Source: Candidatus Coatesbacteria bacterium (lineage in GTDB: Bacteria > RBG-13-66-14 > B26-G2). From it: a DNA stretch of 38,671 nucleotides. A model generated the notes under the pieces. It worked only from the letters and a program-made list of their open reading frames with translations, was not told the origin of the DNA and searched no databases. The stretch lies in contig QMNJ01000001.1 in assembly GCA_003647715.1 (NCBI GenBank), positions 1 to 38,671 of the forward strand. The letters run 5' to 3'. This document shows positions 2,149-33,864 of this stretch, piece by piece (within the stretch, counting starts at the first letter, position 1; each line of letters opens with the position of its first letter). The translations under genes were made by a program, and so were the position numbers.

Positions 2149-2169
2149 TAAAAATCCTCCGTCTGTTAA

Positions 2170-2658: not shown

Positions 2659-2678
2659 ATAAATATATCTAAATCTGT

Positions 2679-4053: not shown

Positions 4054-4087
4054 ATTTGGTAATGACAACTTATAGTAATAATTAAAT

Positions 4088-4555: not shown

Positions 4556-4579
4556 ATTATTCCTCCCTGTAAAAATATG

Positions 4580-5095
4580 TTATAATGGTTTTAACAAACA
4601 AATCCTACCGTCAGTTCTTCTGTATAATACATTAACCCTGTCGGTATGAGCATCTATAAATGCAAAAAACTCGTGATTAGATGACCTGAAATGCTGTAGT
4701 GCTTCTTCCATCGTCATCGGTTTGTATTGTATATTATGAATAATAATCTCCTCTTCAGCAATGGTGGTTGTTTCCTCCTCAACGGTTGGTTCCGTTGCCG
4801 GTCGCTTTGATGATAAGTATCTATCCTTCTGGCGTCTTATCTGCTTTTCAATCTTATCAAATGCATTATTAATTGAGGTTCTGAGGTCGTTGGAATCATC
4901 AGTTCCCCTATAGGAATGACCTTTGGATTTTAGAGATACCTCAACGATATATCTGTGCTTTTCTAAACTTATCACCATATTTAGATTATCATAACCAAAT
5001 TTTAACATTCTCTCAATTTTAGATAACCTCTTATTTATATATTTCTCGGTTGATGGTGAAATTTCAATATTTTTACTCTGAATGTTTATAGCCAT
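4580..5095 (-). CDS. hpf: Ribosome hibernation promoting factor (long HPF)
   Basis: The N-terminus MAINIQSKNIEISPSTEKYINKRLSKIER is typical of sigma-54 modulation protein/HPF. The C-terminal FFAFIDAHTDRVNVLYRRTDGRICLLKP is the long-HPF dimerisation domain. GGAGG SD present. Confidence 0.9.
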   Translation of the reverse strand: MAINIQSKNIEISPSTEKYINKRLSKIERMLKFGYDNLNMVISLEKHRYIVEVSLKSKGHSYRGTDDSNDLRTSINNAFDKIEKQIRRQKDRYLSSKRPATEPTVEEETTTIAEEEIIIHNIQYKPMTMEEALQHFRSSNHEFFAFIDAHTDRVNVLYRRTDGRICLLKPL

Positions 5096-5116
5096 ATTAA
5101 CCTCCTTACCTTCTGT

Positions 5117-5995
5117 TCATACAGTCGCATGGTATGATGTTCTGGCTAATGGTTCTGATAATACACTTTCAAACCCCATCTCTTTCGCCCTCTCACCCCA
5201 TTCTTTAAATTCTTCTTCTGTATAGTATCTGCTTACTGGAACATTCGCATGTGACGGTCTTAAATATTGACCTATAACCAACTTCTTAACCTTCACATCT
5301 CTCAGGTCATACATCAGTTCCTCAATTTCTTCGTTTTTTTCACCCAATCCTAACATAAAGCCCGACTTTGTGGATATACCATCTTTCCTGCTGTTTATTT
5401 TTCGCAATATCTCAAGAGACCTATCGTAGTCAGCGCCAGGGCGAATGCTTTTATATAATCTTCTCACCGTCTCAATATTATGAGAGATACAGTATGGCTC
5501 ACTGTCTATGACCCTATTGAGGGCATCTTCATCACCATTGAAGTCAGGAATCAGTATCTCAACCTTTGTAGCAGGCGAGTGTTTTCTTATCATCTTTACG
5601 GTCTCGTAGAAGACCCCGGCGCCGCCATCCTGCAGGTCGTCTCTGGTAACTGATGTAATAACCACATAGTCCAGATTTAGCTCCCTTAGGGCTAATCCTA
5701 CCCTCTCGGGCTCATCTGGTTCAACTGGTAGTGGTATGCCACCGGTTACACCGCAGAAAGCACACCCTCTGGTGCATATATTCCCGAGTATCATAATAGT
5801 CGCTACGCCGGCGCTGAAGCACTCGCCCTTATTAGGACACTTCGCCTCCTCACATACCGTGTGAAGGCGGTATCGCTTCAATATATTGAGTATCCTTTTT
5901 GTGGAACCCGCCTCTGGCAATCCCGTCTTCTTATATCTTGGGGGTCTTCTCATATTATTCAAAGCGAGTGTATCATTCTTTCTGATAAGCCCCAT
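5117..5995 (-). CDS. lipA: Lipoyl synthase
   Basis: CEEAKCPNKGEC (auxiliary cluster, CX4CX5C) and CTRGCAFC (radical-SAM CX3CX2C). The ATG at 5995 has a GGTGAGG SD and overlaps the lpdA end by 37 nt. An alternative ATG lies at 5953. Confidence 0.95.
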   Translation of the reverse strand: MGLIRKNDTLALNNMRRPPRYKKTGLPEAGSTKRILNILKRYRLHTVCEEAKCPNKGECFSAGVATIMILGNICTRGCAFCGVTGGIPLPVEPDEPERVGLALRELNLDYVVITSVTRDDLQDGGAGVFYETVKMIRKHSPATKVEILIPDFNGDEDALNRVIDSEPYCISHNIETVRRLYKSIRPGADYDRSLEILRKINSRKDGISTKSGFMLGLGEKNEEIEELMYDLRDVKVKKLVIGQYLRPSHANVPVSRYYTEEEFKEWGERAKEMGFESVLSEPLARTSYHATV

Positions 5996-7326
5996 AATGC
6001 CTCACCTGTTGCCTCTGACAGGGTAGGGTGACTATGGACAAGGTCTTTGAACTCATCTGCTTTCATCTCAGAGAGTATTGCCAGTGAAATCTCACCAATC
6101 AATTCGCCAGCAGATAGACCGACTATGGTTCCCGATAGAATCCTTCCATCAGCACCTGAGATTATTTTAACGAAACCATCTGTCTCTCCCATCGCAAGTG
6201 CCCTTCCAAGCGCTCTAAAATGAAATGTGCTTGTTGTGTATTCATACCCGCTCTCTTTCAATTCATCCTCAGTGGGTCCCACTTGGGCTATTTCAGGTAT
6301 TGTATATACCACACTTGGAATAATATCATATCTCACCTTTCTTTTGTATCCAAGTATATTCTCTACCGCTATTACGCCTTCGTAGAATGCCTTGTGAGCC
6401 AGCATGGGGCGGGGAAGAATGTCGCCAATAGCATAGATATTGCCACAGCCAGTGTGGAGGTATTCATCGGTCTCCACAAAGCCACCGTTATTCAGCTTTA
6501 TACCACCTATATTGCTGAAACTATCGGTATTGGGAACCCTGCCAACCGATAGTAAGATACATTCTGCTTCAATCACTATGCCGTCCTCTAAGGTCGCTTC
6601 CAGACAGCCGTCCTTCTTTGTCCATCTCTTGATAGTAGTTTCTGTTGAAAGTTTTACTCCAAGTGATTTCAATTTTGATGCGATGACCCTTGAGGCGCGT
6701 TTATCACTGCCAGGAATTGCTCTATCAAGCAGTTCAACAAGATAAACCTTGACACCTATATTTGCGAATATATATGCAAACTCACATCCGATTGCACCCG
6801 CTCCAACCACTATCAATCTCGCTGGTGGTTTTTCTAGTTCAAGTATATCATCACTGGTCAGAATGTATTTGTTATCTATCTCAAGACCAGGTAATGAAGA
6901 AGGTTTTGAACCAGTAGCAAGAATTATATTGTTCGCCCTGATTTCCTCTACTCCATCAACCATAATTGTGTTCTCTGATGTAAGCTCTCCATATCCCTCT
7001 ATCAAGTCAACCTTTAACTTCTTCAAAAGGTGCAGAACACCATCCCTCAATGTTTTCACCACCTCTTCTCTCGTCTTCAACATGCGTTTGTAGTTGAATT
7101 CAGCATCTCTGATATCAACGCCGTATTCGCTTGAATTTAATGCTATGTTGTATCTGTGCCCTGCTTCTATCATCACCTTGGTAGGTATACAGCCCCGATT
7201 AAGGCAGGTGCCACCTACCTTATCCTTCTCTATTAGGGCTACACTCACTCCCATCTTCGCCGCCCTTATCGCTGCTACATATCCACCCGACCCTCCTCCC
7301 AGAATTGCTATATCATATTCCCTCAA
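5959..7326 (-). CDS. lpdA: Dihydrolipoyl dehydrogenase (E3)
   Basis: GGGSGGY FAD motif, redox disulfide GGTCLNRGCIPTK, second dinucleotide fold VVGAGAIGCEFA, and C-terminal HSHPTLSE. TTG start at 7326 with GGAGG 8 nt upstream. Confidence 0.93.
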   Translation of the reverse strand: MREYDIAILGGGSGGYVAAIRAAKMGVSVALIEKDKVGGTCLNRGCIPTKVMIEAGHRYNIALNSSEYGVDIRDAEFNYKRMLKTREEVVKTLRDGVLHLLKKLKVDLIEGYGELTSENTIMVDGVEEIRANNIILATGSKPSSLPGLEIDNKYILTSDDILELEKPPARLIVVGAGAIGCEFAYIFANIGVKVYLVELLDRAIPGSDKRASRVIASKLKSLGVKLSTETTIKRWTKKDGCLEATLEDGIVIEAECILLSVGRVPNTDSFSNIGGIKLNNGGFVETDEYLHTGCGNIYAIGDILPRPMLAHKAFYEGVIAVENILGYKRKVRYDIIPSVVYTIPEIAQVGPTEDELKESGYEYTTSTFHFRALGRALAMGETDGFVKIISGADGRILSGTIVGLSAGELIGEISLAILSEMKADEFKDLVHSHPTLSEATGEALWGLSERMIHSL

Positions 7327-7344
7327 ATCTCATACCTCCATTAT

Positions 7345-8685
7345 CTATATCCTCTTATTCCTTCTTACTACTCCAGATAATCTTTTTCTCTTCCACAACG
7401 ACGGTATATTAAGCATATCTCTGTATTTCGCTACTGTTCTGCGGGCAATATCATAACCATCCGCCTTGAGTTTTGCAAGTATCTCTTCATCCGATAGGGG
7501 ATTTCTGGGGTCTTCATCAGCGATTATCTCTTTTATCGCCTCCAGTATCTCCCTCTGTGATTTATCCCTGACCTTCTTGGTGAAGAATATCTTCATGGGA
7601 AGTATGCCATGCGGTGTCTTTATATACTTTGATGATACTGCTCTGCTTATCGTAGAGATTGATGTGCCCAGTTTGTCTGCTATATCCTCCATCTTCAGGG
7701 GTCTTATTCCCTTGAGACCCTCTTTTAAGAAGCGGGGTTGTGCGTCCAGCACCGCCTGAGATACCTCAAGGACTGTCTCCAGGCGCCGGTTCACCGTCCA
7801 GCGCATATCCTTTGCCTGCCTGAATAACCCTCTGATGAACCTCAAATCATCTTTCGTTACTCCCTCCGAATTCATAATTGTGTTATAGTATTCGCGCTTA
7901 ACTATCAGATTGGGACAAGCCCTGGGGTTAAGTCGCACCTTAAGACCACCATTTGCGGGCACTGCCTCCAGTTCCCACTCTCCAACCCGCTCAATGTCAT
8001 CCATACCCTCAGCCGGATATGGTCTGGCATTTCTTATCAGTATCTTAAACTCTTCAAACTTTTCCTCTGTAAGTTTGTATCTCTTTGAGATATCTGTGTA
8101 TTCAATTCCAGGATTCTTGATGTATGTTTTAACCAGTTGTTTCAAATTCTTTATCCTGAAACCCGCCTCACGCAACTGTATTTCAATTGCCTCCTCAACG
8201 CTCTCGGCACCTACTCCTGTCGGCTCCATCCTCTGTATCACCCTTTTGAGCACATCTCTAAGTTTGCTCTCCTCAATACCATACCACTTTGAGAGTTCAG
8301 TCACGGAGGCGGTAAAGAGACCCCGCTCATCTATCTCGCCTATAAGTATTTCGCCAATCTTTTTCTCCTCTTCACTTTCAACTAAAAGGTTTAACTGATT
8401 GAGAAGGTGACTCTGGAGGGAGGGCTTTCTATTAGCGATTTTTGCCTCCATCACCACTCGCCTATTGGGCTCGTAATCGGAGGTCGGCGCTGTTTCATCG
8501 GGATAATCCTCCTCTGTTGATTCATCAGAAACATCCACGAAAGGGTTCTGCTCAGCTGACTGCCTGAGGTAGGTTCTCAACTCCTGAGCCGGCATTCTGA
8601 GTATCTTGATGTATTCAAGAACCCTCGGCGCCATCTTCAATTTCTGCTTTATCTTCTGCTCGCTTTTCTGTGCTCTATCAACCAT
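7345..8685 (-). CDS. rpoN: RNA polymerase sigma-54 factor
   Basis: 446 aa with RpoN box ARRTVAKYR, HTH LGTSISTISRAV and region I-like QKLKMAPRVLEYIKILRMPAQEL. Confidence 0.93.
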   Translation of the reverse strand: MVDRAQKSEQKIKQKLKMAPRVLEYIKILRMPAQELRTYLRQSAEQNPFVDVSDESTEEDYPDETAPTSDYEPNRRVVMEAKIANRKPSLQSHLLNQLNLLVESEEEKKIGEILIGEIDERGLFTASVTELSKWYGIEESKLRDVLKRVIQRMEPTGVGAESVEEAIEIQLREAGFRIKNLKQLVKTYIKNPGIEYTDISKRYKLTEEKFEEFKILIRNARPYPAEGMDDIERVGEWELEAVPANGGLKVRLNPRACPNLIVKREYYNTIMNSEGVTKDDLRFIRGLFRQAKDMRWTVNRRLETVLEVSQAVLDAQPRFLKEGLKGIRPLKMEDIADKLGTSISTISRAVSSKYIKTPHGILPMKIFFTKKVRDKSQREILEAIKEIIADEDPRNPLSDEEILAKLKADGYDIARRTVAKYRDMLNIPSLWKRKRLSGVVRRNKRI

Positions 8686-9124
8686 AGTTATTCTATATAG
8701 TTTATTATAACTTGCGGTGCAGATTGTAGAACTATTATATGAGAATATATTTTGAAGAGTAAGGGTGTTTTCGCCAGGATTTTGATGTTCAGTAAATTCA
8801 ACTGTAGAATTAGTTATTGTTGGATAATTTTATGCCTTTAGAATTTATCTGTTTATCTTATTACTTTGAACGATTCTCTGAATACTTCATTCGCTCCTTC
8901 CATATATCTCAGTCTAAAAGATTCTTAACTCTTAGAGAGGTCTAATGATTGTTATTTTTATTTGTTAGCACGGTTTCTATTATGTCCATATACAATATTT
9001 CATTTTTGCTTAATATTGTTTAATTTGCCTTGAAAATAATGTTATTATTATGTAGAAAAACCGAGTGTTTTTTAACTATAATTTTGGCATAAAATAGTGT
9101 ATTATTAAAGAGATAAGAGATGTT

Positions 9125-12100
9125 ATGAAAGACCCGGGAAGAATAACCCTGGTTGTGGCGATAGGATTGGTTTTGTGTTTATCTATTACCTTCTCATATA
9201 CAGAAGAGTGGGTAGTAGATTATGCAGGTGTTAAGGCAACTATATCCAGCCCTGCCATTGGCGATGTCAATGGTGATGGCAGGAAAGAGGTAGTAATTGG
9301 CTCAGGAACCGGTGAGCTGTATGTATTTACCGGCTCGGGGAGTATTGCCACTGGTTTCCCAATTGACCTCGGTAGTTCAGTCATTTCGTCCCCAGTTCTT
9401 GCGAATATTGACTCCGATTCAGCACTTGAGATAATCATAGGAACAACCGATGGAAAATTGTATGCCTACAATGGCAATGGCTCAATTGTGTCGGGATTCC
9501 CTGTGGTTGCGGATGATGGAATAGTAGCAACACCCGCAGTAATTGACCTTGATAAAGACGGCAGGAACGATATTATAGTCCCCGCAGTTGATGGAAAACT
9601 CTATGCCTGGTCTGGTAGCGGTGGATTGTTGCCTGGCTTCCCTGAGAAGATCTCAAAGACAGGCAACCCAAGGGTAGAATCATCGCCTGCGGTTGGTGAT
9701 GTTGATGGCGATGGTAACATAGAGATTGCATTTGGTGCTGACGATGGTCGTGTTTACTTTTGCAGGTATGCTTCAGGTGTTCTATCGGTGATATGGTCTA
9801 GAAAGACCGGTTACTATGTAAGGTCAAGCCCCGCCATCGGTGATATTGATGGAGATGGTCTTTACGAGATTGTTGTGGGCAGTGATGACTACTCTGTCTA
9901 TGCCTTTGAACTATCTGGCTCGCCAGTTAGGGGTTTTCCTGTAAGCACCGGTTATAAACTGCGATATGTCTCACCCGCTCTTGCGGATATTGATTTTGAC
10001 ACTGTAGTAGAAGTGGTGGTTGCCAGTGGTGATGGTAATGTCTATGTCATAGATGAAGATGGGACATTTCTTCCTGGTTTTCCTGTAAATCTGAACAGTA
10101 AGGTTCTTTATTCCTCTCCGGTGGTTTCGGACATAGACGGAGATGGCAAGCTGGACATAATAGTCGGGTGTGAGAACGGGAATGTCTATGCTGTCTCAGG
10201 GGATGGCACCATAATGCCTGGCTATCCATATGTTCTGGGTGGAGCAGCTTATACCTCACCTGCGGTTGGTAACATAGATGCTGATTCAAGTTTAGAGATG
10301 GTGATAGGTGGAAAGGATGGGTTTTTATACTGTGTGGATGTTGGGGGGATGGAGTCGAGAGCCAACATGCCCTGGTCGCAGTTCAAGAAGGATAATTACA
10401 GAGATTCGGTATTTGGATTTGTAGGTGGTGTAGCTGAGTTGCCATCGGTCACCGTCTCGGATATAAATGATGAGGTCTCTGGTGATGTAACCATCAATTA
10501 TGTTCTCTCGGATAAGCAGGGTGATTACTTAAGCATTCAGGCAATGTATTCAGATGACGCAGGCAGGACCTGGCATGAGGCGAGTATTATTGGAAGGACT
10601 GAAAACATAGGTCCTTCCGAATACAAGGGCAGTTTATTGTGGAAGTCAAATGATGACCTCATAGGTCCGCTGGAGAAGAAGGGCGAGGCAGACCCCGTGC
10701 TCATCGCTGAGGAGAGGAGGGAATATAGAGAGCAGAAGGATATCAAGTTCAAGATTATACCATCTGATTCAAGTGGGATAGGAACCAGTGGTGAAACAAT
10801 ATTATTTCATGTTGATAATAATGTTGCACCATCAATAACAATTGAACCCATAGAGGGCGAGAAGACCGGGGATGTGGTATTCAATTATACAATATCTGAT
10901 GAAGAGCAAGACCTGATAGGTTTACAGTTTGAGTATTCTCTTGACAGTGGTGAGACATGGAAACCCGCCACTGTTTCGGGTGCGACTACATCTATACGCC
11001 CAGCCAGGTATTCCGGACAATGCACATGGGATTCGGTGGCTGATTGTCAGGCGATTGATTCAGAGAATGTGATGTTCAGGATAATCGCATATGATAACGA
11101 CCCTGGACCTCCCGGTTTCTCAAACAAATTTCACCTTGATAACAATACACCTCCCAGGGTCATTGTTGAGGATATCCTTGAAGAGGTAGGGGGAGACATT
11201 GTAATTAATTATCAATTGCAGGACAGGGAGGAGGATAAGCTGTCACTTGACTGCTTCTATTCACTTGATAGCGGCGAGAACTGGGAGAAGGCAACGGTGG
11301 AGGGGAACATAACCGATATAACCTCTACCGATTATAAGAGTAATCTGGTGTGGAAGAGTTTGGATGACACCAGAGGTGTTGATATAAGGACGACGCAGTT
11401 CAAGATAGTTCCTATGGACAATGACGAGGGAAAGATAGATACCACCAGTAATTTCCACCTTGATAATAACAATCCGCCTGCGGTCAAGGTTGCAGAGGTG
11501 GTAGGTGAGCAGACGGGCGAGTTTCCCATTGGCTTTACAATCAGTGATGATGAGGGTGACGAGGTGTCGTTGTTATGTGAGTATTCCAAGGATAAAGGGC
11601 AGTCGTGGATAAACGCTACGGTCAGTGGACGCTTAAGCGGTATAAAACCTGCTGATTATTCCAGTGAATTGATGTGGGACTCAATAATTGACCTTCTTGG
11701 AGTGGATTCTGCAGAGATACTGTTCAGGATAACGCCTTCCGACGCAGATGTTGGTGAGCCGGGTGTAAGCGGAATGATTTATGTAGATAATAACAAACCA
11801 CCATCAATATTACTGTCAGATTTCACTGAGGAGCAGAGTGGTGATATAGATGTCTATTTCACCGTCTCTGACCTTGAGAGGGATACTGTGAGTTTATACT
11901 GTGAGTATTCACCTGATGCCGGCACAACCTGGTATGAGGCGACAGTGTCAGGTAATACTGATTTCGGGGAGGAAGGATATATTGGGCATATTACCTGGAA
12001 TTCACTTGTTGATGTTCCTGACCAATATCTTGAAAAAACCAGGTTCAGAATAACACCTTCTGATAATGATGAGGGTGAGCCGGGGACGACCAATAACTTC

Positions 12101-15100
12101 ATCGTTGATAACGACAATCCACCAACCGTTGTCGTTATGGGTGTCAGCGGTGAACAAGCAGGAGATATAACTATTCCTTATGAGATAAGCGATAAAGAAG
12201 GCGACCCGGTCTCGTTATTTGTTGAATATTCAGTTGATGGGGGTGAAAACTTCTATCCAGCAACTATAACCGGCTCTTTGGAGGGCATCACCGTAGGCAG
12301 TTACAGAGGCGCCTTTACCTGGGAATCAGAGCGTGATATTAAGGGTGTTGATTCAACTCAAGTCCTGGTGAGAGTGACCCCATCTGACCTTGATGCGGGT
12401 GAACCAGGGATATCGCCTCCCATCTGGGTGGACAATAATACGCCTCCGACAATCTCTCTTTCAGATGTTTCAGGCGAACAGTATGAGGATGTTGTCATTG
12501 ATTACTCCATAGATGATATGGAATCAGACCTGGTGAGTTTGATATGTGAGTTTAGTGAGGACGGTGGTTTGAACTGGAAACCCGCTACGGTTGAGGGCTT
12601 TATTGAGGAGATAGACAGCACCGGTTATTTAGGCTCTGTGATATGGAGAAGCGATTCTGACCTGCCTGGCACTGACCAGATGGATATTAGGTTCAGGATA
12701 ACACCAGTTGATAATGATACTGGAACCCCTGGGGAGACAGAGAACTTCCATCTTGATAATAACGAACTTCCATCTATTATAGTTGAGGATATCACAGAAG
12801 AGCAGAGTGGTAATGTCTCTGTCTCATATAAACTGGAGGATGCTGAGTATGATGCCAGTATGATAAAGGTTGAATACTCAAGTGATGGTGGTTTCACCTG
12901 GCACCCCGCAACTGTTGCCACAAAACTGGAGATTGACCCCGCCCGATATGCTGGAACAGTTATGTGGACATCGGAGGCGGATTTACCAGCGATTGACAGC
13001 CACGATGTTATGGTGAGAATTACACCATTTGATAACGACGAGGGCTTCCCCGATGAGACCGACCCATTCCACCTTGACAATAATCAACCACCTGTTGCAG
13101 TGGTTGACGATATACTGGAAGAGGTATCTGAGGATGTGAGAATCTCGTTCTCGCTTGATGATAATGATGGGGATATACTGTCAATAGATGCTGAATACTC
13201 AACCGATGGAGGAGAAACATGGAACACGGCGACTATAACGGGTGACACCGTCAATCTACGACCTCCATATTCAGGCAGTATAATATGGAACTCTACACTT
13301 GATGTTCTGGGGTTAGACAGCGACGATGTGGTATTTAAGATAATACCATCGGATAATGATGTCGGTGAGGCGAAAGTGAGCAATAGTTTCCACCTGGACA
13401 ACAACAGTTTGCCCATATCCTTCGTGGCGGATATTCATGACGAGAGCTCGGGGGATATAGATATTGAATATTCACTTCAGGATGACGAGAGAGACCCGTT
13501 GAGTATCACCTGTTTCTACTCAGATGATGGTGGCTCTACCTGGCGAGAGGCAACCGTTTCGGGAACCACCACCGGTATAACCGAGGTGGGATATGAGGGC
13601 TCTGTAATATGGCATTCTAAAGAAGACCTATTAGGTGTAGATAGAGATGACATTATGTTCAAGGTGGTTGCCAGCGATAATGATACTGGTGAGAGAGCAA
13701 GTCCAGGTCTTGTAGTGCTTGACAACAATAACACACCGAGGGTTGAGGTCAATGCACCTGAGGGTGAGAGTTCAGGAATTGTCAGGGTTCCGGTTGATAT
13801 CTCGGATGATGAGGGTGATATGATTGAACTGGTATGTGAGTTTTCCATAGATGGTGGACAGGTATATCAGCCGGCAACAGTGATAAGTCCAAAGGGTCAG
13901 ATACACACCTCGGAGTATTCAACATTCATTGAATGGGATTCAATGAATGACATAGAGGGACTTGATGTTGAGGATGTGAGATTTAAGGTTATACCATGGG
14001 ATGAGGATGAGGGAGAGGCATCTGTGTCACCACCATTCCATGTTGATAACAATATTCCGCCGATGGTTGAAGTAGCAGGTATTACCGAAGAGGTTTCAGG
14101 TGAGGTCTTTGTTGACTTCACTATTGAGGATGTTGAGAATGATAATGTAAGTATGAAGGTTGAATATTCAATTGATGGTGGAAGAACATGGGCACCTGCT
14201 ACAATAGATGGCAATATGAATAATATAACAAGTTTGATGTATGCTAATACATTTGTGTGGAGAAGCGACCAGGATGTTCCATCAGCCGATTTGACCGATG
14301 TCGCCTTACGGCTCACCCCTAGCGATAGAGATGTTGGAGAGCCGGCTATTGTCTCGCCCATTCACCTTGATAATAACATACCTCCCGAGGTCACTGTTAC
14401 TATTCCCTCTGGTGAACTCACGGGTGATGTGGATATTGGCTATACAATCAGTGACCCCGAGGGAGACACTGTATCATTGATGATGGAGTATTCAGTAGAT
14501 GGTGGAATAACCTATAACGAGGCGACCATAAGTGGACAGATAAGCGGTATTACCCCTGCGAGATACTCTGGAGTTATAAAGTGGGATTCAGGTGCGGATA
14601 TTGCCGGTGTGGATTCAGGGGATATAAGATTACGGGTGGTTGCAATGGATGCGGATGAGGGTAAACCGTTTGAGAGCGAACTAATAAGTGTGGACAATAA
14701 CATTCCACCAGATGTATCTCTTGGTAGTTATGAATTCTCACCCACCGGTGATATAATATTGCTCTATCATCTCTCTGATAATGAGGGTGACAGTTTGAGT
14801 TTGGTGTGTGAATACTCGGAGGATGGAGGTTCCACATTCAAGAATGCAACCATTATGGGGCTTACCACCGATATAACACCAAAGGAGTATGATGGTGAAC
14901 TTATATGGGCAGTGGGAACCGACCTTCCGGGGAAGGTCCTATCAGATGTGCTATTCAGGATAACTCCGTATGATACAGAAGCGGGTCAGCCGGAGACATT
15001 GGCAATAGGTAAACTTGATACCAATATTCCACCTACCTTGAATGTTATTGAACCGTTTGAGGAGGTGTCTGGTGATGTGGCAATAAGTTACTCAATTTAT

Positions 15101-15658
15101 GACCCGGAAGAGGATACAGTGGATTTGAAGGTTGAATATTCGGTGGATGGTGGGATGACATTTAAGGAAGCGACTATAAGGTCTGGTAGCACGGGGATTA
15201 GTTCGTCTGGATATCTGGGCAAGTTTGTATGGGATACAAGGGCAGACCTTGATAATAAGGAATTTAATGTCGTTTTAAGGGTTACAGCAAGCGATATAAA
15301 AGAAGGCGAGGAGATAATAACGCCTTCATTTCCTGTTGATAATAACAGACCACCGAAGATATCAATAAAGAGTTATGCATTGAGCGAAGATAAGGAGACG
15401 GTATCTATTGAATTCACCATTCTGGATGATGAAAGGGACAAGGCGAGAATTAAGTGTCAGTTCAGCGAGGATGGGGGGGTCACATGGAACGATGCTACAG
15501 TTGAGGGAATGACCACCGACCTTGTTCCGGATGGATTATATAAGCTTATATGGAAGAAGTCAGAAGACATCCCAACCATTCTTGAGGGGGCGAGAATCAA
15601 GTTTAAGATAATTCCATTTGATTATGATGAGGGAACATCAAGTGAATTAGAGTTATAA
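9125..15658 (+). CDS. Giant (2177 aa) predicted cell-surface/adhesin-like protein: N-terminal signal/anchor, 8 FG-GAP-like propeller blades, 16 tandem Asp-box modules
   Basis: A single uninterrupted ORF. The hydrophobic N-terminus is MKDPGRITLVVAIGLVLCLSITF. The internal repeat structure is listed separately below. No paralogue or known gene name recognised. Confidence 0.9.
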   Translation: MKDPGRITLVVAIGLVLCLSITFSYTEEWVVDYAGVKATISSPAIGDVNGDGRKEVVIGSGTGELYVFTGSGSIATGFPIDLGSSVISSPVLANIDSDSALEIIIGTTDGKLYAYNGNGSIVSGFPVVADDGIVATPAVIDLDKDGRNDIIVPAVDGKLYAWSGSGGLLPGFPEKISKTGNPRVESSPAVGDVDGDGNIEIAFGADDGRVYFCRYASGVLSVIWSRKTGYYVRSSPAIGDIDGDGLYEIVVGSDDYSVYAFELSGSPVRGFPVSTGYKLRYVSPALADIDFDTVVEVVVASGDGNVYVIDEDGTFLPGFPVNLNSKVLYSSPVVSDIDGDGKLDIIVGCENGNVYAVSGDGTIMPGYPYVLGGAAYTSPAVGNIDADSSLEMVIGGKDGFLYCVDVGGMESRANMPWSQFKKDNYRDSVFGFVGGVAELPSVTVSDINDEVSGDVTINYVLSDKQGDYLSIQAMYSDDAGRTWHEASIIGRTENIGPSEYKGSLLWKSNDDLIGPLEKKGEADPVLIAEERREYREQKDIKFKIIPSDSSGIGTSGETILFHVDNNVAPSITIEPIEGEKTGDVVFNYTISDEEQDLIGLQFEYSLDSGETWKPATVSGATTSIRPARYSGQCTWDSVADCQAIDSENVMFRIIAYDNDPGPPGFSNKFHLDNNTPPRVIVEDILEEVGGDIVINYQLQDREEDKLSLDCFYSLDSGENWEKATVEGNITDITSTDYKSNLVWKSLDDTRGVDIRTTQFKIVPMDNDEGKIDTTSNFHLDNNNPPAVKVAEVVGEQTGEFPIGFTISDDEGDEVSLLCEYSKDKGQSWINATVSGRLSGIKPADYSSELMWDSIIDLLGVDSAEILFRITPSDADVGEPGVSGMIYVDNNKPPSILLSDFTEEQSGDIDVYFTVSDLERDTVSLYCEYSPDAGTTWYEATVSGNTDFGEEGYIGHITWNSLVDVPDQYLEKTRFRITPSDNDEGEPGTTNNFIVDNDNPPTVVVMGVSGEQAGDITIPYEISDKEGDPVSLFVEYSVDGGENFYPATITGSLEGITVGSYRGAFTWESERDIKGVDSTQVLVRVTPSDLDAGEPGISPPIWVDNNTPPTISLSDVSGEQYEDVVIDYSIDDMESDLVSLICEFSEDGGLNWKPATVEGFIEEIDSTGYLGSVIWRSDSDLPGTDQMDIRFRITPVDNDTGTPGETENFHLDNNELPSIIVEDITEEQSGNVSVSYKLEDAEYDASMIKVEYSSDGGFTWHPATVATKLEIDPARYAGTVMWTSEADLPAIDSHDVMVRITPFDNDEGFPDETDPFHLDNNQPPVAVVDDILEEVSEDVRISFSLDDNDGDILSIDAEYSTDGGETWNTATITGDTVNLRPPYSGSIIWNSTLDVLGLDSDDVVFKIIPSDNDVGEAKVSNSFHLDNNSLPISFVADIHDESSGDIDIEYSLQDDERDPLSITCFYSDDGGSTWREATVSGTTTGITEVGYEGSVIWHSKEDLLGVDRDDIMFKVVASDNDTGERASPGLVVLDNNNTPRVEVNAPEGESSGIVRVPVDISDDEGDMIELVCEFSIDGGQVYQPATVISPKGQIHTSEYSTFIEWDSMNDIEGLDVEDVRFKVIPWDEDEGEASVSPPFHVDNNIPPMVEVAGITEEVSGEVFVDFTIEDVENDNVSMKVEYSIDGGRTWAPATIDGNMNNITSLMYANTFVWRSDQDVPSADLTDVALRLTPSDRDVGEPAIVSPIHLDNNIPPEVTVTIPSGELTGDVDIGYTISDPEGDTVSLMMEYSVDGGITYNEATISGQISGITPARYSGVIKWDSGADIAGVDSGDIRLRVVAMDADEGKPFESELISVDNNIPPDVSLGSYEFSPTGDIILLYHLSDNEGDSLSLVCEYSEDGGSTFKNATIMGLTTDITPKEYDGELIWAVGTDLPGKVLSDVLFRITPYDTEAGQPETLAIGKLDTNIPPTLNVIEPFEEVSGDVAISYSIYDPEEDTVDLKVEYSVDGGMTFKEATIRSGSTGISSSGYLGKFVWDTRADLDNKEFNVVLRVTASDIKEGEEIITPSFPVDNNRPPKISIKSYALSEDKETVSIEFTILDDERDKARIKCQFSEDGGVTWNDATVEGMTTDLVPDGLYKLIWKKSEDIPTILEGARIKFKIIPFDYDEGTSSELEL
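9245..10342 (+). repeat. Eight FG-GAP/VCBS-like beta-propeller blade repeats (coding, aa 41-406 of the giant protein)
   Basis: Eight copies at roughly 47-50 aa spacing of the pattern SSPA(I/V)GD(I/V)(D/N)GDG..E(I/V)(I/V)(I/V)G..DG.(L/V)Y(A/V)..(G)..G...GFP. Examples: SSPAIGDVNGDGRKEVVIGSGTGELYVF, SSPAVGDVDGDGNIEIAFGADDGRVYF, SSPVVSDIDGDGKLDIIVGCENGNVYAV. Confidence 0.8.
10436..15655 (+). repeat. 16 tandem in-frame coding modules of 321/324 nt (107-108 aa). Module 1 is 129 aa with an insertion and module 16 is 103 aa.
   Basis: Module starts counted from the sequence: about 10436, then 10823, 11147, 11471, 11795, 12116, 12440, 12764, 13085, 13406, 13730, 14054, 14378, 14702, 15026 and 15347. 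Consensus: xPPxvxVxdixgEqsGDvxIxYxlsDxEgDxvSLxcEYSxDGGxTWxxATvxGxxxxIxxxxYxGxxxWxSxxDlxGvDsxdvxFRItPsDnDxGxPgxsxxFhlDNN. The copies are diverged at the nucleotide level. Confidence 0.9.
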
Positions 15659-15668
15659 AGGATTCTAT

Positions 15669-16826
15669 ATGGCTGAGGAAAAGAAACTGTATCTGAGAGT
15701 AAAAGGTGTTGAGCACGGACCCTTCACTGTGGAAGAGGTAAAGACCTGGATTGAGGGTGGGAAGTTCAAGCCAACCGACTATATAAGAATGGAGGGGATG
15801 AAGCACTGGGTGATGGCTAAGAACCTGGTTCACCTCAAGGAATATTTTGATGCCAAGAAGGAGGAGGATAGAAAGGGAGCATTTGCTTCATGGCTGGGAC
15901 AGGTTAGAGAAGGTAAGCCACCTATTGTGTTGACTCCCACTGGTGTAACGGAGGAGCATACAAGGATTGCAGAGGCAAGGAAGCAACTTGAAGAGGATGC
16001 GAAGCGACTTGAAGAGAGAGAAGCGGAGTTAAGGGAGCAGATAGAGAGGGAGTTAACCAAGAAGCAGGAGGAGGAGTTTGAGAGATTGCGTAAGGAGAGA
16101 GAGCGTCTTGAGGAACATCGGATGGAGTTAGAAGAAGCCGAGATAGAGATAAAACAGATGGAGAAGACGGTGAGGAGGAGAAGGAGAATACCCTTGATAA
16201 TAGCAGGGGCTGTTATAGTTGCAGTTATTGCGGTCAGCACTCCAATTGTTATTAATTACTACAAGAGCACGAAGGAGTTGCAGGAGGCAATCAATAGAAT
16301 AGACATAATTGACAATGAGATTAAGAACCTGATGGCTAAATTAGAAGATGCAGAGACAACGATGGAGAGAGAAGCAATAATGGAGAAGATAGAGGAGTTG
16401 AAGAAGGAGAGGGAGGAATTGGTCAAAGAGGTTGAGAAGAAAGGCGGAGGGGAACCAATTGAAAATATTGAGACCACCCTCGGTAGTGTCAGTATTACAG
16501 GTCCGTTAAGCATTATCGGTCCAGGGTCTGATGACCCATCAAGGAGCTCTTCTACGGTGGATTCCATCATCAGAGGTAGAATGGGTGCAATCAATAGTGT
16601 TTACAACCGAGAATTAAGGAGCAATCCATCGCTAGAGGGAAAGGTAGTAGTATCGTTTACTGTATCCTCTGATGGGACGGTTACCCGAGCTAATGTAATA
16701 TCCTCCACACTCAGCAACTCCAAACTTGAGAATGCAATTGTCTCTAATATTATGCTCGCTAGATTCCCAAGCACCAGCAGTGGTGATATTACGGTTACTT
16801 ATCCGTTTACCTTTGAAACAAAATAA
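15669..16826 (+). CDS. GYF_2 domain / coiled-coil / single TM / AgmX-PglI-type (TonB_C-like) C-terminal domain protein (GltJ-like architecture)
   Basis: N-terminus GPFTVEEVKTWIEGGKFKPTDYIRMEGMKHWVMAKNL has the GYF_2 pattern. An E/K/R-rich coiled coil follows, then RRRRR and the TM IPLIIAGAVIVAVIAVSTPIVINYY (aa 174-197). The C-terminus GRMGAINSVYNRELRSNPSLEGKVVVSFTVSSDGTVTRANVISSTLSNSKLENAIVSNIMLARFPSTSSGDITVTYPFTF fits the AgmX/PglI / TonB_C pattern. AAGGA SD present. The start lies 10 nt after the giant gene stop. Confidence 0.7.
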   Translation: MAEEKKLYLRVKGVEHGPFTVEEVKTWIEGGKFKPTDYIRMEGMKHWVMAKNLVHLKEYFDAKKEEDRKGAFASWLGQVREGKPPIVLTPTGVTEEHTRIAEARKQLEEDAKRLEEREAELREQIERELTKKQEEEFERLRKERERLEEHRMELEEAEIEIKQMEKTVRRRRRIPLIIAGAVIVAVIAVSTPIVINYYKSTKELQEAINRIDIIDNEIKNLMAKLEDAETTMEREAIMEKIEELKKEREELVKEVEKKGGGEPIENIETTLGSVSITGPLSIIGPGSDDPSRSSSTVDSIIRGRMGAINSVYNRELRSNPSLEGKVVVSFTVSSDGTVTRANVISSTLSNSKLENAIVSNIMLARFPSTSSGDITVTYPFTFETK

Positions 16827-16839
16827 TATGTAGTAATCT

Positions 16840-17970
16840 TTACCTTACAAGGTTTAATTTCTCTTTTACAAATTGCATTATCTCTTCGGGGTCTATATCC
16901 TCCCAACATATCATCCTAACGCAGTTCTCAAGGTATCCATCTCTATAACAGGGAGCACATTTTACACGGGGGCTGATAATAATTGAATTATCGTTTTTAT
17001 ATGGTCCATATCTAACTGGATTAGTCGGTCCAAAGATTACAATGGTGGGTGTCTTGAACGCAGACGAAATATGGAGGGGGAGGGAGTCATTAGTTATCAA
17101 TAGGCGAGAGCACTTTATTACTGCCGATACCTCTGGGATGGTAGTTTTACCAGTAATGTCCGTGATATTTGAAGATAGAGAGGCAAGTATTCTAGCCCTT
17201 TTTCTATCACTTTTGCTACCAATGATTAAAATTGGAATACTTAATGAACAAAGTTTCTGAACGAGTGCATTCCATTTGTTAATTGGCATTAATTTATTAG
17301 GCATCTTTGTCTTTGGGTTGTCGCCACCACCAGGTGCTATGACTATGTATTTCTCTGAGATGCCCGCATCCTTTAATTGCTTTTCTACTTTATTGGTCAC
17401 TTTCTCTGTGAGGAATATCTCAAGCCCTTTATCCTCAGGTTTACCACCGAGTGAGAGAACCACATTGAGGTATTCATCTGCCTGATGTATTGTCTCATCA
17501 TATTCAGTTGAGTAGTTCAGAAGTGCTCCCTCACCCCTGCGGTTTATTCCTGCCAGGATACCAGAGCAGATAATTCTAAATATCAGCGCGAAGGCAAATG
17601 AGTGATGAAATAGAATACAGAGGTCGTAGTCCTGTTTTCTTATGTCAAGCATTAGTTGCATTATTTTAATTGGGTTGAGAGAGATAAATATAGATTCATC
17701 CACTGTCAATATTCTGTTAATGTTAGGATTGGTAGCAATGATTGGTGATGACCTAATCCCTGTCAGGTAGTTAATCTCTGCATTGGGGAATAATCTTCTC
17801 AGGGTTCTCAGGGCGGGTGTGGTAAGAAGGACCTCACCAGTAGCCCATATTTTGACCACGAGTATCTTTTTAACCTTCTGAGGTCTTTTAGTTCTATTCT
17901 TAAAAGGACTTATGAGAGGAGATATTGCTCTACCGGCAAGTGAACTCAGATTTTCAATCATGAACGGCAT
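16840..17970 (-). CDS. Glycosyltransferase family 9 (heptosyltransferase-like)
   Basis: KILVVKIWATGEVLLTTPALRTLRRLFPNAEINYLT (GT9 N-terminal motif) and LITNDSLPLHISSAFKTPTIVIFGPTNP (GT9 C-terminal motif). Confidence 0.85.
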   Translation of the reverse strand: MPFMIENLSSLAGRAISPLISPFKNRTKRPQKVKKILVVKIWATGEVLLTTPALRTLRRLFPNAEINYLTGIRSSPIIATNPNINRILTVDESIFISLNPIKIMQLMLDIRKQDYDLCILFHHSFAFALIFRIICSGILAGINRRGEGALLNYSTEYDETIHQADEYLNVVLSLGGKPEDKGLEIFLTEKVTNKVEKQLKDAGISEKYIVIAPGGGDNPKTKMPNKLMPINKWNALVQKLCSLSIPILIIGSKSDRKRARILASLSSNITDITGKTTIPEVSAVIKCSRLLITNDSLPLHISSAFKTPTIVIFGPTNPVRYGPYKNDNSIIISPRVKCAPCYRDGYLENCVRMICWEDIDPEEIMQFVKEKLNLVR

Positions 17971-19363
17971 ATATCTCTACCTCCCCTATCTCTTTGAATA
18001 AATAGTAATCATCTTTGATTAAGACCTTTATCTTGTCAGGACTATCAATACCCAGGATGACCCATTGTGGTTTCTGATTCAGTATTATCTGGCACTGTTC
18101 TTCGTGTGAGGGCAGGTGATATTTAGTTCTCTCCTCCTCAGTCAGCAGGTCTGATATTCTTCTGGAGAACTCGCCCAGAAGTAGGTCAGGGTGAGGTATG
18201 CCACTGGTGACATATCCGCTCCACCAGGTTGCGACCACATCATCTTCGTCAACATATTCATCTGTGAAGTCCTGGACTTTCACTATTTCGCTGATTCCAA
18301 CCATAGGTTTAGCATAGTAATTCATAGCAACCCTCCCCAAAGGTCTAACAAGCCCTGTTATGATGAAAAAGAGCATTACAGTTGTTATCAAAATAGATTT
18401 CTTTCGTGATGCTGTTAAATGGTGGATTAAATGGTTGGATGAGATGGCGGTAAATGGAACCAATAATACCAGATACTGGAGTGAAGCAGATATGGGTATA
18501 ATACTGATAATAAGGATGACCAGGACATATAGAGATGATATGCGCTCTATCATTTCAGTTCTTCTGCGGAATAATCTAAATATAGCGATTACTGCGAGTA
18601 TGACTATTATCGCTGAGTTGGGGTCTAATGCCATTTCTTTCACTATGCTAAATCTCGTCATCTGCGACTTATAACCACTGAGTGCGGTGGTGTGAATGCC
18701 GATTACATTGAACAGTAGATAATCGGTGTATTTGAGTGTATAAAATATGATAGGTATTATGCCCGCTATTAATCCGGAGAGAAATGGATAGATATTCCAA
18801 CGATTATTAGTTCTATTGAAGCAGTATATAGGGATGATTATTATGGGTATTAGGATGATTCGTGAAGATATAACAAGACCTGTGAAGAATCCGGACAGAA
18901 GCGCAAATATCAATCGTTTGTTATTGATAGAAAGTATCAAAAACATTATTGAGATAATCAGTAGTAGTATGGTCAGTGAATAGACCTTGACAGGTGATAA
19001 CCAGTTGATTGTTAGATATGAGAAACTGAATATATAGAGTGGTAAACTGCTTGCTTCATTGGTTGTTCTGATTAGCAGGTATAAGATGGTAAGTGAGGTT
19101 ATTGCAAGGGCAACACTGAGGAATCTTCCGGCAATCAGAGATGTCCCGGTAACCTTGAAGAGCAGGGCATATAATAGTGTAGTTAGGGGTGTGTGTGGCA
19201 ATGGAATGTCTCTGTATAATTCATACCCTCTGTTCAAGAGATGTGCTGAGCCAATCCAGAATCCCTCGTCCCTATCCACCGGTCTGTTATATATCTGAGT
19301 TATTAATATAATAGAGAATATGATTAAGATGACTGCAAATGTTCTATTAAGGTTTTTTAACAT
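17954..19363 (-). CDS. Polytopic GT-C glycosyltransferase, PMT_2/ArnT (GT39/GT83)-like
   Basis: 469 aa with about 10 or more hydrophobic helices. The first loop DRDEGFWIGSAHLLNRGYELYRDIPLPHTPL resembles the acidic DE loop of ArnT/PMT enzymes. There is a soluble C-terminal domain. Its end overlaps the GT9 start by 17 nt. Confidence 0.65.
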   Translation of the reverse strand: MLKNLNRTFAVILIIFSIILITQIYNRPVDRDEGFWIGSAHLLNRGYELYRDIPLPHTPLTTLLYALLFKVTGTSLIAGRFLSVALAITSLTILYLLIRTTNEASSLPLYIFSFSYLTINWLSPVKVYSLTILLLIISIMFLILSINNKRLIFALLSGFFTGLVISSRIILIPIIIIPIYCFNRTNNRWNIYPFLSGLIAGIIPIIFYTLKYTDYLLFNVIGIHTTALSGYKSQMTRFSIVKEMALDPNSAIIVILAVIAIFRLFRRRTEMIERISSLYVLVILIISIIPISASLQYLVLLVPFTAISSNHLIHHLTASRKKSILITTVMLFFIITGLVRPLGRVAMNYYAKPMVGISEIVKVQDFTDEYVDEDDVVATWWSGYVTSGIPHPDLLLGEFSRRISDLLTEEERTKYHLPSHEEQCQIILNQKPQWVILGIDSPDKIKVLIKDDYYLFKEIGEVEIYAVHD

Positions 19364-19378
19364 AACCGATTTTTTCTG

Positions 19379-20593
19379 TTATTTCTTACTTCTTTGCCTT
19401 TTATGGTAATTATAGACATTGGTCAGGATTTTCTCTAATGCTTCAGCGTGTTTACCCCATGACTGCTCTTCTTGAATGTATCGGGTAGCATTATCAGATA
19501 GTTTCTGTCTTAATGATGAGTTGTCTCTTATCATCTTGATTGCCTGTGCATATTCATCCGGTTTATCGGGATTGACCAGAATTCCTCTCTCACCATAGCC
19601 GACTATCTTCTCCAGGGTGTCATATTTACTCACTACCACGGGGAGTCCACTTGCCAGGTATTCCATCAATTTTGCCGGTGCCCAGAAGAACCCAAATTCC
19701 TCCAGTGGTTTGTAATAGGAGGCATTGAACGGTGCAAGCCCCACATCGCTTATTGCCATAAGGTAGGGAATTGTTTTGTAGGGCTGGGGACCAAGATAGA
19801 GACAGTATCTCCCGAGACCATTAGAGTGGATGTATTCCATCAATCTTGCCTCTTCGCCCCCTCCACCCACGAGCAAGAAAAGTGCATCTGGAATAATCCT
19901 AGAGGTGTGATAGATAATATCAGGAAGGTCATATATTCCCTGCCATTCTCTGAATGAGCCGACGAATAAGATGAGAAACCTGTTATTTAGATTGTATTTT
20001 TCTATTATTTCTCTGGCGGTGTTAGTATTTCTTAGGTTCTTGTTAAATCTTGAGTGGTCTGCACCCCAGAAAAGTAGGTAGGTTCTGTCTCGTGCGAAGT
20101 CAGGAACTACAGTAGATATTGTGGTAATATTTGCACTTGACTGTCTAAACTGAAAGTTGACCCAGGATTTGAGGGGTGCTTTAATGATGGGCGATTTTAT
20201 CTTCCAGCGGTGTATAATCTCATCAACATGTGGACTGTTCACTTCCAGAACCAGAGGTGTTCTCTTCAGAAATGAGTATATTGCACCAAGACCCCCTGCA
20301 GTTATATATCTCTCCATAACTATATCAAAGTTCTTGTTAAGAAGTGATGGGAGATAGGGGATGGATATCAGTGGGAGTTTTATGCTAATGACCTTCTGCC
20401 AGACCCTGATGACCTTGACGCCATCAACATTTTCAAGGGCACGCTGGTCGTTGCGCCTTAAAGAGAACAGCGTTACCTGGTGTCCAAGTCGGACCAGATT
20501 CCTGGCGACCTCAAAGGTATGAACCGCACCAGCGTGGCTTGCGGGAACATCCTCACATGAGAAGTATAGTATTTTCAATGAGTGGTTATTCAT
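19379..20593 (-). CDS. Glycosyltransferase family 4 (GT-B, group 1)
   Basis: N-terminus HAGAVHTFEVARNLVRLGHQVTLFS and C-terminal E..FG.....KLMEYLASGLPVVVS (EX7E-type region). ATGA start/stop overlap with the upstream gene at 20590-20593. Confidence 0.85.
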   Translation of the reverse strand: MNNHSLKILYFSCEDVPASHAGAVHTFEVARNLVRLGHQVTLFSLRRNDQRALENVDGVKVIRVWQKVISIKLPLISIPYLPSLLNKNFDIVMERYITAGGLGAIYSFLKRTPLVLEVNSPHVDEIIHRWKIKSPIIKAPLKSWVNFQFRQSSANITTISTVVPDFARDRTYLLFWGADHSRFNKNLRNTNTAREIIEKYNLNNRFLILFVGSFREWQGIYDLPDIIYHTSRIIPDALFLLVGGGGEEARLMEYIHSNGLGRYCLYLGPQPYKTIPYLMAISDVGLAPFNASYYKPLEEFGFFWAPAKLMEYLASGLPVVVSKYDTLEKIVGYGERGILVNPDKPDEYAQAIKMIRDNSSLRQKLSDNATRYIQEEQSWGKHAEALEKILTNVYNYHKRQRSKK

Positions 20594-30281: not shown

Positions 30282-30287
30282 GTGTAT

Positions 30288-30644: not shown

Positions 30645-30682
30645 TTTCTTAAAACCGGATGGTGTATTCTTAGAAATGAATT

Positions 30683-33847: not shown

Positions 33848-33864
33848 ATGATACATTTGGCAGG

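Follow-up and report, generated by a model that had tools for sequence, protein, structure and literature searches.

The propeller of the Vibrio proteins Bap1 and RbmC binds exopolysaccharide (Vibrio polysaccharide; PMC10102183). In the Agl-Glt gliding machinery of Myxococcus, AgmX, which is GltJ, consists of a ZnR domain, a linker and a GYF domain in the cytoplasm, a transmembrane segment, a long periplasmic spacer and a C-terminal domain similar to that of TonB (PMC11761067, PMC11135422, PMC3169522). Here we describe a gene pair that can be compared with both systems. It is located on contig QMNJ01000001.1 of Candidatus Coatesbacteria bacterium (assembly GCA_003647715.1), and the whole stretch of 38,671 nucleotides (38.7 kb) that was analyzed is referred to as the window. 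The upstream gene encodes a protein of 2177 amino acids (aa), below called the giant, and the downstream gene a 385-aa protein, below called the partner. The giant is an exported protein that is composed of an eight-bladed FG-GAP propeller, a flexible linker and 16 immunoglobulin (Ig)-like modules, and that has a conserved GltJ-like neighbor. Its export route and function we infer from the results presented below.

Like Bap1 and RbmC (structure 6mlt), the giant has an N-terminal Sec signal peptide, an eight-bladed Ca propeller of the FG-GAP/VCBS type and no C-terminal sorting signal. The likeness to Bap1 is at the level of the fold only (14% identity, TMq 0.50). Bap1 and RbmC have an adhesive, matrix-associated role in which the propeller binds a polysaccharide, and by analogy the giant may have such a role too. 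They differ from the giant, however, in that they have beta-prism lectin domains instead of a stalk of 16 Ig-like modules, are shorter than 1000 aa and lack a GltJ-like partner. Integrin alpha subunits also start with an FG-GAP Ca propeller that is followed by Ig-like "leg" domains, but they contain seven blades, three leg domains, a C-terminal transmembrane anchor and a beta-subunit partner, and their sequence homology with the giant is undetectable beyond the FG-GAP repeat. The stalk resembles that of Salmonella SiiE (2yn3), which is among the fold matches and which also consists of a very long acidic array of ~100-aa Ig-like domains with acidic residues at the junctions. Adhesins of the LapA/MpIBP RTX type likewise contain long acidic arrays of ~100-aa Ig-like domains with acidic junctions. 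SiiE and the RTX adhesins, however, lack a Sec signal peptide and, as substrates of the type I secretion system (T1SS), contain C-terminal signals or RTX repeats, whereas the giant has a signal peptide and no GGxGxD motif. In addition, the repeats of those adhesins often vary in number and are almost the same in sequence, whereas the modules of the giant are ~38% identical, are positional orthologues and are fixed at 16. An individual module resembles the chitobiase C-terminal, sulfite-oxidase dimerisation and reelin subrepeat B domains in having a single Asp-box hairpin in a beta-sandwich; the alignment is limited, though, to this hairpin of ~10-25 residues, and the modules score below the cut-offs of these families. 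Finally, propeller repeats are shared with FG-GAP cargo of the type IX secretion system (T9SS), such as the T9SS-dependent M6-like inactivated metalloprotease family NF052323. The giant scores far below the cut-off of this family, and has neither a protease domain nor a T9SS C-terminal domain (CTD).

The partner resembles GltJ (AgmX) and GltG (PglI) of Myxococcus xanthus, since it is a bitopic inner-membrane protein with a cytoplasmic GYF domain, one transmembrane segment, a periplasmic spacer and a TonB-C-like end. It differs from GltJ in its size (385 versus 674 aa) and in lacking the N-terminal zinc finger (its N-terminus is not Cys-rich) and the MglA-binding linker. Moreover, its spacers are coiled coils, whereas those of GltJ are disordered Pro-rich segments. 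The full-length equivalog models of GltJ (NF033761) and GltG scored only 29.5 and 65 bits, far below their cut-offs of 450 and 650, respectively. The partner is therefore not an orthologue of GltJ.

The giant contains an eight-bladed propeller

The giant gene, on the plus strand, is the only long open reading frame (ORF) within 9125-15658. An initial annotation of this DNA, made from the sequence alone, had described it as an uninterrupted ORF encoding 2177 residues behind an AT-rich region, with eight FG-GAP-like blades followed by a 16-module acidic stalk that runs to the last residues; all these features are confirmed here. Loops with the motif [DN]x[DN]xD[GST]xx[DE] are present eight times (at aa 47, 94, 141, 192, 240, 288, 336 and 383), and scores well above the cut-offs were obtained with the Pfam families FG-GAP_3 (PF13517; 84.4 bits, cut-off 26.9) and FG-GAP (PF01839; 63.6 bits, cut-off 22.1). 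We also analyzed an AlphaFold2 model of aa 1-567, which is based on an alignment of seven sequences and has a mean predicted local distance difference test score (pLDDT) of 81.7. It comprises a helix (aa 4-23), an all-beta domain (aa 29-409), a stretch with a pLDDT below 50 (aa 411-439) and the first module (aa 441-563). The best match of this model in the PDB is the designed eight-bladed protein Cake8 (6tjg; template modelling (TM) score 0.93 on the target, root-mean-square deviation 2.3 A, 28% identity), so that the eight-blade reading holds. Further fold matches included BBSome propellers, integrin alphaIIb and the eight-bladed propeller of Vibrio cholerae Bap1 (6mlt). The domain thus scores above the Pfam thresholds, has a closed fold in the model and contains the Ca-loop motif in 8/8 repeats, which predicts Ca binding; it belongs to the known class of FG-GAP/VCBS propellers. 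When the whole protein was used in a sequence search of the PDB, only two marginal matches to 80-aa propeller fragments were obtained. The best NCBIfam match of the propeller repeats was NF052323 (135 bits, cut-off 600), and many homologues of the propeller carry a Por_Secre_tail.

In the initial annotation the blades were thought to be closed by PWSQFKKDNYRDS. This was not borne out. In the model this sequence lies within the low-confidence stretch and is part of a linker rather than a demonstrable closure of the propeller. Three residues of the linker, W417, F420 and G431, are invariant across the family.

The stalk consists of sixteen Asp-box Ig-like modules

Asp-box and linker motifs were read on P0001, the representative of the cluster, which differs by seven residues from the protein encoded in the window. 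It contains 16 Asp-boxes (SxDxGxx[WFY]) with a spacing of 107-108 aa, except that the first spacing is 129 aa, and fifteen linkers of the type [VLI]D[NT][ND]..P are located between them. The acidic motifs DxExD, SxDxGxTW, WxS..D, PxDxDxG and DNN are conserved in each module. The stalk has an isoelectric point of 4.05 and contains 20% Asp plus Glu, and the last strand of module 16 is the end of the protein. A model of modules 2-4, based on an alignment of 90 rows, was all-beta and had a high confidence (pLDDT 96.6, predicted TM score 0.77). Its fold matches were tandem Ig arrays, including titin I65-I70, contactins and SiiE (2yn3), at no more than 14% identity; integrin alphaIIb was found among the matches of both models.

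No single module reached the cut-off of any Pfam family. Weak contacts were obtained with CHB_HEX_C (the best, 18.2 bits versus a cut-off of 23.6), Reelin_subrepeat-B and BNR, in all of which only the Asp-box hairpin was aligned. This fits with the single Asp-boxes that are known in Ig-like and other beta-sandwich domains (PMC2716378). An Asp-box (BNR) propeller or sialidase-like stalk was rejected, as the spacing of 107-108 aa is not the ~40-70 aa of such repeats and each box is placed within an Ig-like sandwich in the model. We also rejected membership of the cadherin superfamily: no cadherin family was found among the Pfam matches, and only the logic of the acidic junction motifs is alike. 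The Pfam comparison, the structure predictions and the fold searches that the initial annotation had proposed as checks have hence supported the propeller and given Ig-like modules that correspond to no named Pfam domain. The module is nevertheless widespread. A profile of it matched 3998 representative proteins at E <= 1e-3 and 588 at E <= 1e-30, which range from ~360 to 5900 aa in length and in which the module is accompanied by a C-terminal RCC1 propeller, Big_5 or FlgD_ig. It also builds other giants, such as P0159 (3618 aa, ~30 modules plus a C-terminal RCC1 propeller) and others of up to 5918 aa. Despite this distribution, no Pfam model of the module exists.

The number of modules is fixed

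The search for homologues, another of the proposed checks, yielded ~23 full-length homologues (38-72% identity), but no close homologue that has been characterized. We found no literature on this family; the few papers on Coatesbacteria are metagenomic surveys according to their titles and abstracts, and the databases name these proteins only "FG-GAP-like repeat-containing protein" or "hypothetical protein". When one genome per species was scanned, full-length members were present only in metagenome-assembled genomes (MAGs) labelled Candidatus Coatesbacteria, Candidatus Zixiibacteriota or unclassified "bacterium", whereas the propeller alone was widespread in bacteria and archaea. The GC content of the family loci ranges from 37% to 66%.

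The homologues are 2174-2268 aa long, except for P0020 (2398 aa), which has two extra modules; 16 modules are present in 22/23 of them. Homologues at 45-50% identity repeat the spacing pattern 129/108/108/108/107 and so on, and the module number and length pattern are kept down to ~40% identity. Modules of the same index are 46-51% identical between orthologues, compared to 37-38% for modules of different index, and in the closest distant homologue the module of the same index was the best match in 13/16 cases. Within the giant the modules are ~38% identical to one another, and the gene contains no tandem repeat at the DNA level. The array is thus old and fixed, and constitutes a rod of set length, unlike a variable adhesin array. 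The fixed module number together with the positional orthology of the modules strongly indicates that length itself is under selection. Conservation is fairly even along the giant. Peaks are found at blades 4-5 (window 9680-9970; 55-65% mean pairwise identity) and modules 7-8 (window 12443-13087; 55-57%), compared to ~45% elsewhere, and lows at the signal peptide and at module 16, which with 38% is the least conserved module.

Two side observations concern the integrity of these arrays. Directly after the giant of homologue P0023 (L008:14639-16177) an ORF is present that encodes a signal peptide and at least four nearly identical Asp-box Ig modules and that is cut short by the end of the contig. 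Whereas the array of the giant is old and diverged, this one has been amplified recently. The giant gene is split into several ORFs in L013, L019 and L097, of which two are chromosome-level MAGs of Coatesbacteria and one is a long contig; in L097 the partner gene is split too. These are likely frameshift errors of long-read assembly and not pseudogenes.

The giant has a Sec-type signal peptide and lacks recognizable sorting signals

The N-terminus of the giant had been noted before as hydrophobic, and strongly hydrophobic 19-aa windows are indeed confined to aa 3-27 of the whole protein. This region has the layout of a signal peptide, with MKDPGR as n-region, I7-F23 as h-region and candidate signal peptidase I sites after S20 or S24, and it coincides with the N-terminal helix of the AlphaFold2 model. 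A signal peptide is present at the start of all homologues, most of which have a short h-region and AxA-type sites (ASA|L, ARA|Q, AQG|A); these canonical sites and short h-regions occur in orthologues at 40-50% identity. The N-terminal 26 aa are the least conserved stretch of the giant (19% identity), as expected for a signal peptide. Judged by orthology, the signal peptide of the window protein would be cleaved, although this is less certain in its own sub-clade. After cleavage the mature protein would consist of a propeller head followed by an Ig-like stalk, the order found in integrin alpha. We considered that the mature N-terminus (EEWVVDY; KWVVTA in P0023) may be a TonB-box-like sequence; in the model, however, the strand at aa 29-32 directly before the propeller may belong to the propeller fold.

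The absence of a C-terminal sorting signal (LPXTG, T9SS CTD, barrel or hydrophobic tail), which had been noticed in the initial annotation, was supported by Pfam, NCBIfam, hhalign and motif scans. No Pfam or NCBIfam model of T9SS (E <= 0.1), of autotransporters (type V secretion system, T5SS) or of T1SS matched the giant; for T9SS, the C-terminal type A/B sorting domains PF18962, TIGR04183 and TIGR04131 were used. The possibility that the last module is a T9SS CTD was rejected, as its comparison with the type-A CTD profile by hhalign gave a probability of 0.3%. Also rejected were a T1SS RTX adhesin (GGxGxD is absent and an N-terminal signal peptide is present), an autotransporter or other T5SS substrate (there is no Pfam match to a barrel or TPS domain, and signal peptide, propeller and 16 modules fill the whole sequence) and a sortase substrate (no LPxTG and no C-terminal hydrophobic window). 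The protein is not a lipoprotein either. When the lipobox pattern [LVI][ASTVI][GAS]C was tested, the sequence LVLC was found to have Leu at position -1, and its Cys is missing in P0003 and P0004, so that there is no conserved lipobox Cys. Homologues have no C-terminal extension beyond a short acidic tail. T9SS cargo does exist in the lineage, as genes with a Por_Secre_tail adjoin that of homologue P0005.

A GltJ-like gene is located downstream of the giant gene

Matches to the partner were above the Pfam cut-offs for GYF_2 (33.2 bits, cut-off 25.8) and TonB_C (27.4 bits, cut-off 24.6). Its C-terminus was best matched by NF033768, the AgmX/PglI C-terminal domain (87 bits, cut-off 40, E 7e-25), the generic TonB C-terminal model scoring lower (36.6 bits, cut-off 27.1), and at NCBI a homologue 65% identical to the partner bears the name of the AgmX/PglI C-terminal domain. 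A search of structures with a profile of the partner identified TonB C-terminal domains (E 2.4e-5) and, weakly, the GYF domain of GltJ (7z3c, E 0.14). In the part encoding the cytoplasmic coiled coil the gene contains a 21-nt tandem repeat (15967-16016; 2.4 copies, 83% matches).

The partner gene directly follows the giant gene in seven lineages: the window and L089; L090; L001, L002, L091 and L092; L093; L009 (a Coatesbacteria MAG); L007; and L097. The giants of these loci share 39-78% identity with that of the window, and the two genes are separated by gaps of 10-92 nt. In a metagenome search with the partner as query, the giant was located immediately upstream in 5/6 loci. This arrangement suggests that the two genes are co-transcribed in the clade of the window. 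In the P0005 lineage three T9SS-cargo paralogues precede the partner. In the GC-rich clade labelled Zixibacteria a 436-aa form of the partner lies behind a gene for a ~190-aa OMP_b-brl barrel located ~80 nt upstream, with no giant nearby (L095:9352-11311; L096:9337-11314). L096 and the giant-bearing locus L006 are from the same sample and have a similar tetranucleotide composition (r = 0.97), which suggests that both genes persist unlinked in this clade.

Coordinates and genomic surroundings

Table 1. Features of the giant and partner genes and of the adjacent region (window coordinates).
Feature	Coordinates	Strand	Remarks
rpoN	7345-8685	-	divergent neighbor of the giant gene
AT-rich divergent intergenic region, rpoN / giant gene	8686..9124	.	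439 nt, 26.7% GC
Giant gene	9125..15658	+	ATG start, 2177 aa, stop codon included
Sec-type signal peptide (predicted), aa 1-~24/26	9125..9202	+	hydropathy, -3/-1 rule, homologues
Eight-bladed FG-GAP/VCBS-type beta-propeller, aa 29-410	9209..10354	+	Pfam, model, DxDxDGxxE-type Ca-loop per blade
Low-confidence linker, aa 411-439, containing PWSQFKKDNYRDS	10355..10441	+	pLDDT <50
Module 1, aa 440-567	10442..10825	+	Asp-box Ig-like, with family-conserved ~21-aa charged helical insertion AEERREYREQKD, helix 524-535
Modules 2-16, aa 568-2177	10826..15655	+	fifteen 102-108-aa Asp-box Ig-like modules, DNNxPP linkers
Partner gene, 385 aa	15669..16826	+	10 nt downstream of the giant gene, AAGGA before ATG
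Partner layout			GYF_2 aa 8-53 (cytoplasmic), charged coiled coil, RRRRR and transmembrane helix aa ~174-197, periplasmic coiled coil, AgmX/PglI-type TonB-C-like domain aa 293-383

The low GC content of the region upstream of the giant gene compares with 42.3% for the whole window, and the promoter of the giant gene is presumably located in this region. The best sigma-70-like match within it is at 9053-9082. No match to a sigma-54 -24/-12 promoter was found there, despite the divergent rpoN, and neither was any Rfam family. A single TAnnTTTG sequence, at 9079, corresponds to the number expected by chance.

The string of minus-strand genes to which rpoN belongs (127-8685) comprises rpoN, genes for dihydrolipoamide dehydrogenase-like and lipoyl synthase-like proteins, hpf, and genes for ptsN-like EIIA, HPr kinase, EIIA-man, EIIB-sorbose, HPr and enzyme I. 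This is a nitrogen-phosphotransferase system/HPr kinase regulatory cluster, in which two lipoate-related genes form an insertion behind rpoN. On the other side a convergent envelope-glycan cluster (16840-24626, minus strand) encodes a GT9 heptosyltransferase, PMT_2/ArnT-like proteins, a GT4/GT1 protein, a PMT-like protein and a YfhO-like membrane protein. The cluster is kept in locus L001, which is 72% identical. Synteny beyond the partner gene is not kept across the whole family. In the GC-rich clade (L005, L006, L010, L011, L014 and L018) a same-strand gene for an LpxL-like lipid A acyltransferase always precedes the giant gene, which is followed by variable inserts (toxin-antitoxin-like pairs, a methyltransferase) and then by genes for multi-zinc-ribbon proteins of 216-241 aa, of which there is one or a paralogous pair. 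The setting is thus an envelope setting in both clades, with a lipopolysaccharide (LPS) glycosyltransferase cluster downstream in the window and the acyltransferase gene directly upstream in the other clade.

Some 13 kb downstream of the gene pair, at 29205-31033, a tetratricopeptide repeat (TPR) protein, a 120-aa ORF of unknown type and a Roadblock/LC7 protein (MglB-type fold) are encoded, and at L007 a Robl_LC7 gene (L007:1072-1440) is located 6.5 kb upstream of the giant. These Roadblock/LC7 genes are possibly relevant to a GltJ-like system, or their presence may be a coincidence. Other Glt/Agl or secretion-system genes were sought in the window, but only generic TPR proteins and this one Roadblock/LC7 protein were found, and no AglRQS or GltD/E/C genes were recognized within the window. 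Further downstream, a biotin carboxylase ORF that starts with GTG (33742-35241) shares 106 nt (33742-33847) with the end of an M48 peptidase ORF (32201-33847); as the Pfam match of the carboxylase starts at residue 43, the true start of this ORF is probably further downstream.

Discussion

We tentatively favor, at a probability that we put just short of even, the view that the giant is a Sec-exported, Ca-stiffened surface or envelope rod of fixed length, which takes a route other than T9SS, T1SS or T5SS and is coupled across the envelope to the partner. Removal of the signal peptide, as suggested by the family, would give a mature protein starting with the eight-bladed propeller and its predicted Ca2+ loop per blade. 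By analogy with integrin alpha heads and with Bap1/RbmC, the propeller would be the ligand- or glycan-binding end. According to the model, a flexible linker of ~30 aa would connect it to the 16 modules, whose acidic junction motifs (DxExD, PxDxDxG and DNNxPP) are most likely Ca2+-binding and make the array rigid, in the manner of cadherins and of SiiE and RTX adhesins. With ~4-4.5 nm per Ig domain the rod would be roughly 70 nm long and, its length being under selection, would act as a spacer or strut and not as a freely expanding adhesin. The giant would cross or associate with the outer membrane without lipidation, for which a route similar to that of type II secretion systems (T2SS), as with Bap1, is the simplest guess. 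Most likely, the partner tethers or couples the rod to the cell envelope and the cytoplasm.

These considerations modify part of the initial annotation. Its surface adhesin stands insofar as the giant is exported and adhesin-like, with a propeller and a long stalk; its unusual polarity, with the propeller next to an N-terminal anchor, is not supported, because the N-terminus is a signal peptide and the order after its removal would be that of integrin alpha. It had left two alternatives, secretion after signal cleavage or a partner protein that holds the distal end. The former fits the AxA sites of the family. A conserved downstream partner does exist, but that it holds the distal C-terminal end is unsupported.

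Several points weigh against the view that we favor. The giant contains no outer-membrane translocation signal and no secretion system was recognized in the window, and a Sec substrate by default remains in the periplasm. In the sub-clade of the window protein the h-region has 17 residues and only non-canonical, S/T-type -1/-3 sites are present. The proposed Ca2+ binding and rod length are deduced from motifs and general Ig-domain dimensions, and the surface location and the giant-partner contact from architecture and adjacency. In addition, the two genes are not neighbors in the P0005 lineage and the GC-rich clade, so that coupling of the two proteins is not universal.

The lack of any recognized outer-membrane sorting signal would also be explained if the giant stays in the periplasm as an envelope scaffold that lies along the membrane or the peptidoglycan, is held there by the partner's TonB-C-like domain and helps to shape the envelope or the outer membrane and its LPS. 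The partner's C-terminal domain is periplasmic, LPS and outer-membrane biogenesis genes neighbor the giant in both clades, and a fixed length suggests a structural ruler. We nevertheless consider a scaffold unlikely: with ~70 nm the rod would exceed the normal width of a periplasm several-fold, and the combination of FG-GAP propellers with Ca-dependent Ig arrays is typical of proteins outside the cell, the same propeller and module types being found with T9SS tails in other proteins. It is more doubtful still that the giant is a freely released matrix protein, secreted by a T2SS like Bap1/RbmC, which cross-links exopolysaccharide or particles in a biofilm and has nothing to do with its GltJ-like neighbor. 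The Bap1-like fold of the head and targeting by a signal peptide, with no C-terminal signal, agree with such a protein (PMC10102183), as does the unlinked position of the partner gene in several lineages. A functional link is, however, argued for by the adjacency of the two genes, with short gaps, at 39-78% identity of the giant, and a strict number of modules is unexpected for a matrix glue.

Least probable, in our view, is that the N-terminus is an uncleaved inner-membrane signal anchor, with the propeller next to the membrane and the C-terminus of the stalk free. The 17-residue h-region of the sub-clade, which lacks AxA sites, would fit an anchor, and P0002 has a Pro at one candidate -1 position. 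Against this are the orthologues with short h-regions and canonical sites, the poor conservation of the N-terminal 26 aa, and the fact that a 2150-aa ectodomain anchored in a diderm's inner membrane would be caught beneath the outer membrane. Returning to the coupled rod, gene adjacency and domain architecture alone point to a further elaboration, which we regard as a distinctly long shot: the pair may form a minimal trans-envelope, "focal-adhesion-like" device, in which a cytoplasmic GYF domain is joined through one transmembrane segment and a periplasmic coiled coil to a TonB-C-like domain that grips one end of the rod by beta-strand augmentation. If this were true, cytoplasmic inputs or inputs driven by the proton motive force would move the rod, put it under tension or let it go, to serve gliding, the control of attachment or the spacing of cells, and Glt-type surface coupling would reach past Myxococcota and Bdellovibrionota and use an adhesin of an entirely different kind.

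While the FG-GAP propeller is of a class already known, what is new is a fixed rod of 16 copies of an unnamed but widespread Asp-box Ig module, with no known surface-sorting signal and a conserved pairing with a GltJ-like GYF/TonB-C protein. Since it occurs in thousands of proteins and lacks a Pfam model, the stalk module merits the definition of a family. Uncultured bacteria often encode giant surface proteins made of repeats, most of which tend to be written off as "adhesins". The constancy of 16 non-interchangeable modules across lineages of 37% to 66% GC implies a ruler or strut function. That the giant has a Sec signal peptide alone, in a lineage with T9SS cargo, points to an unrecognized way of exporting or retaining a 230-kDa rod, and its GltJ-like partner may offer a way to learn how the cell interior is linked to such proteins.

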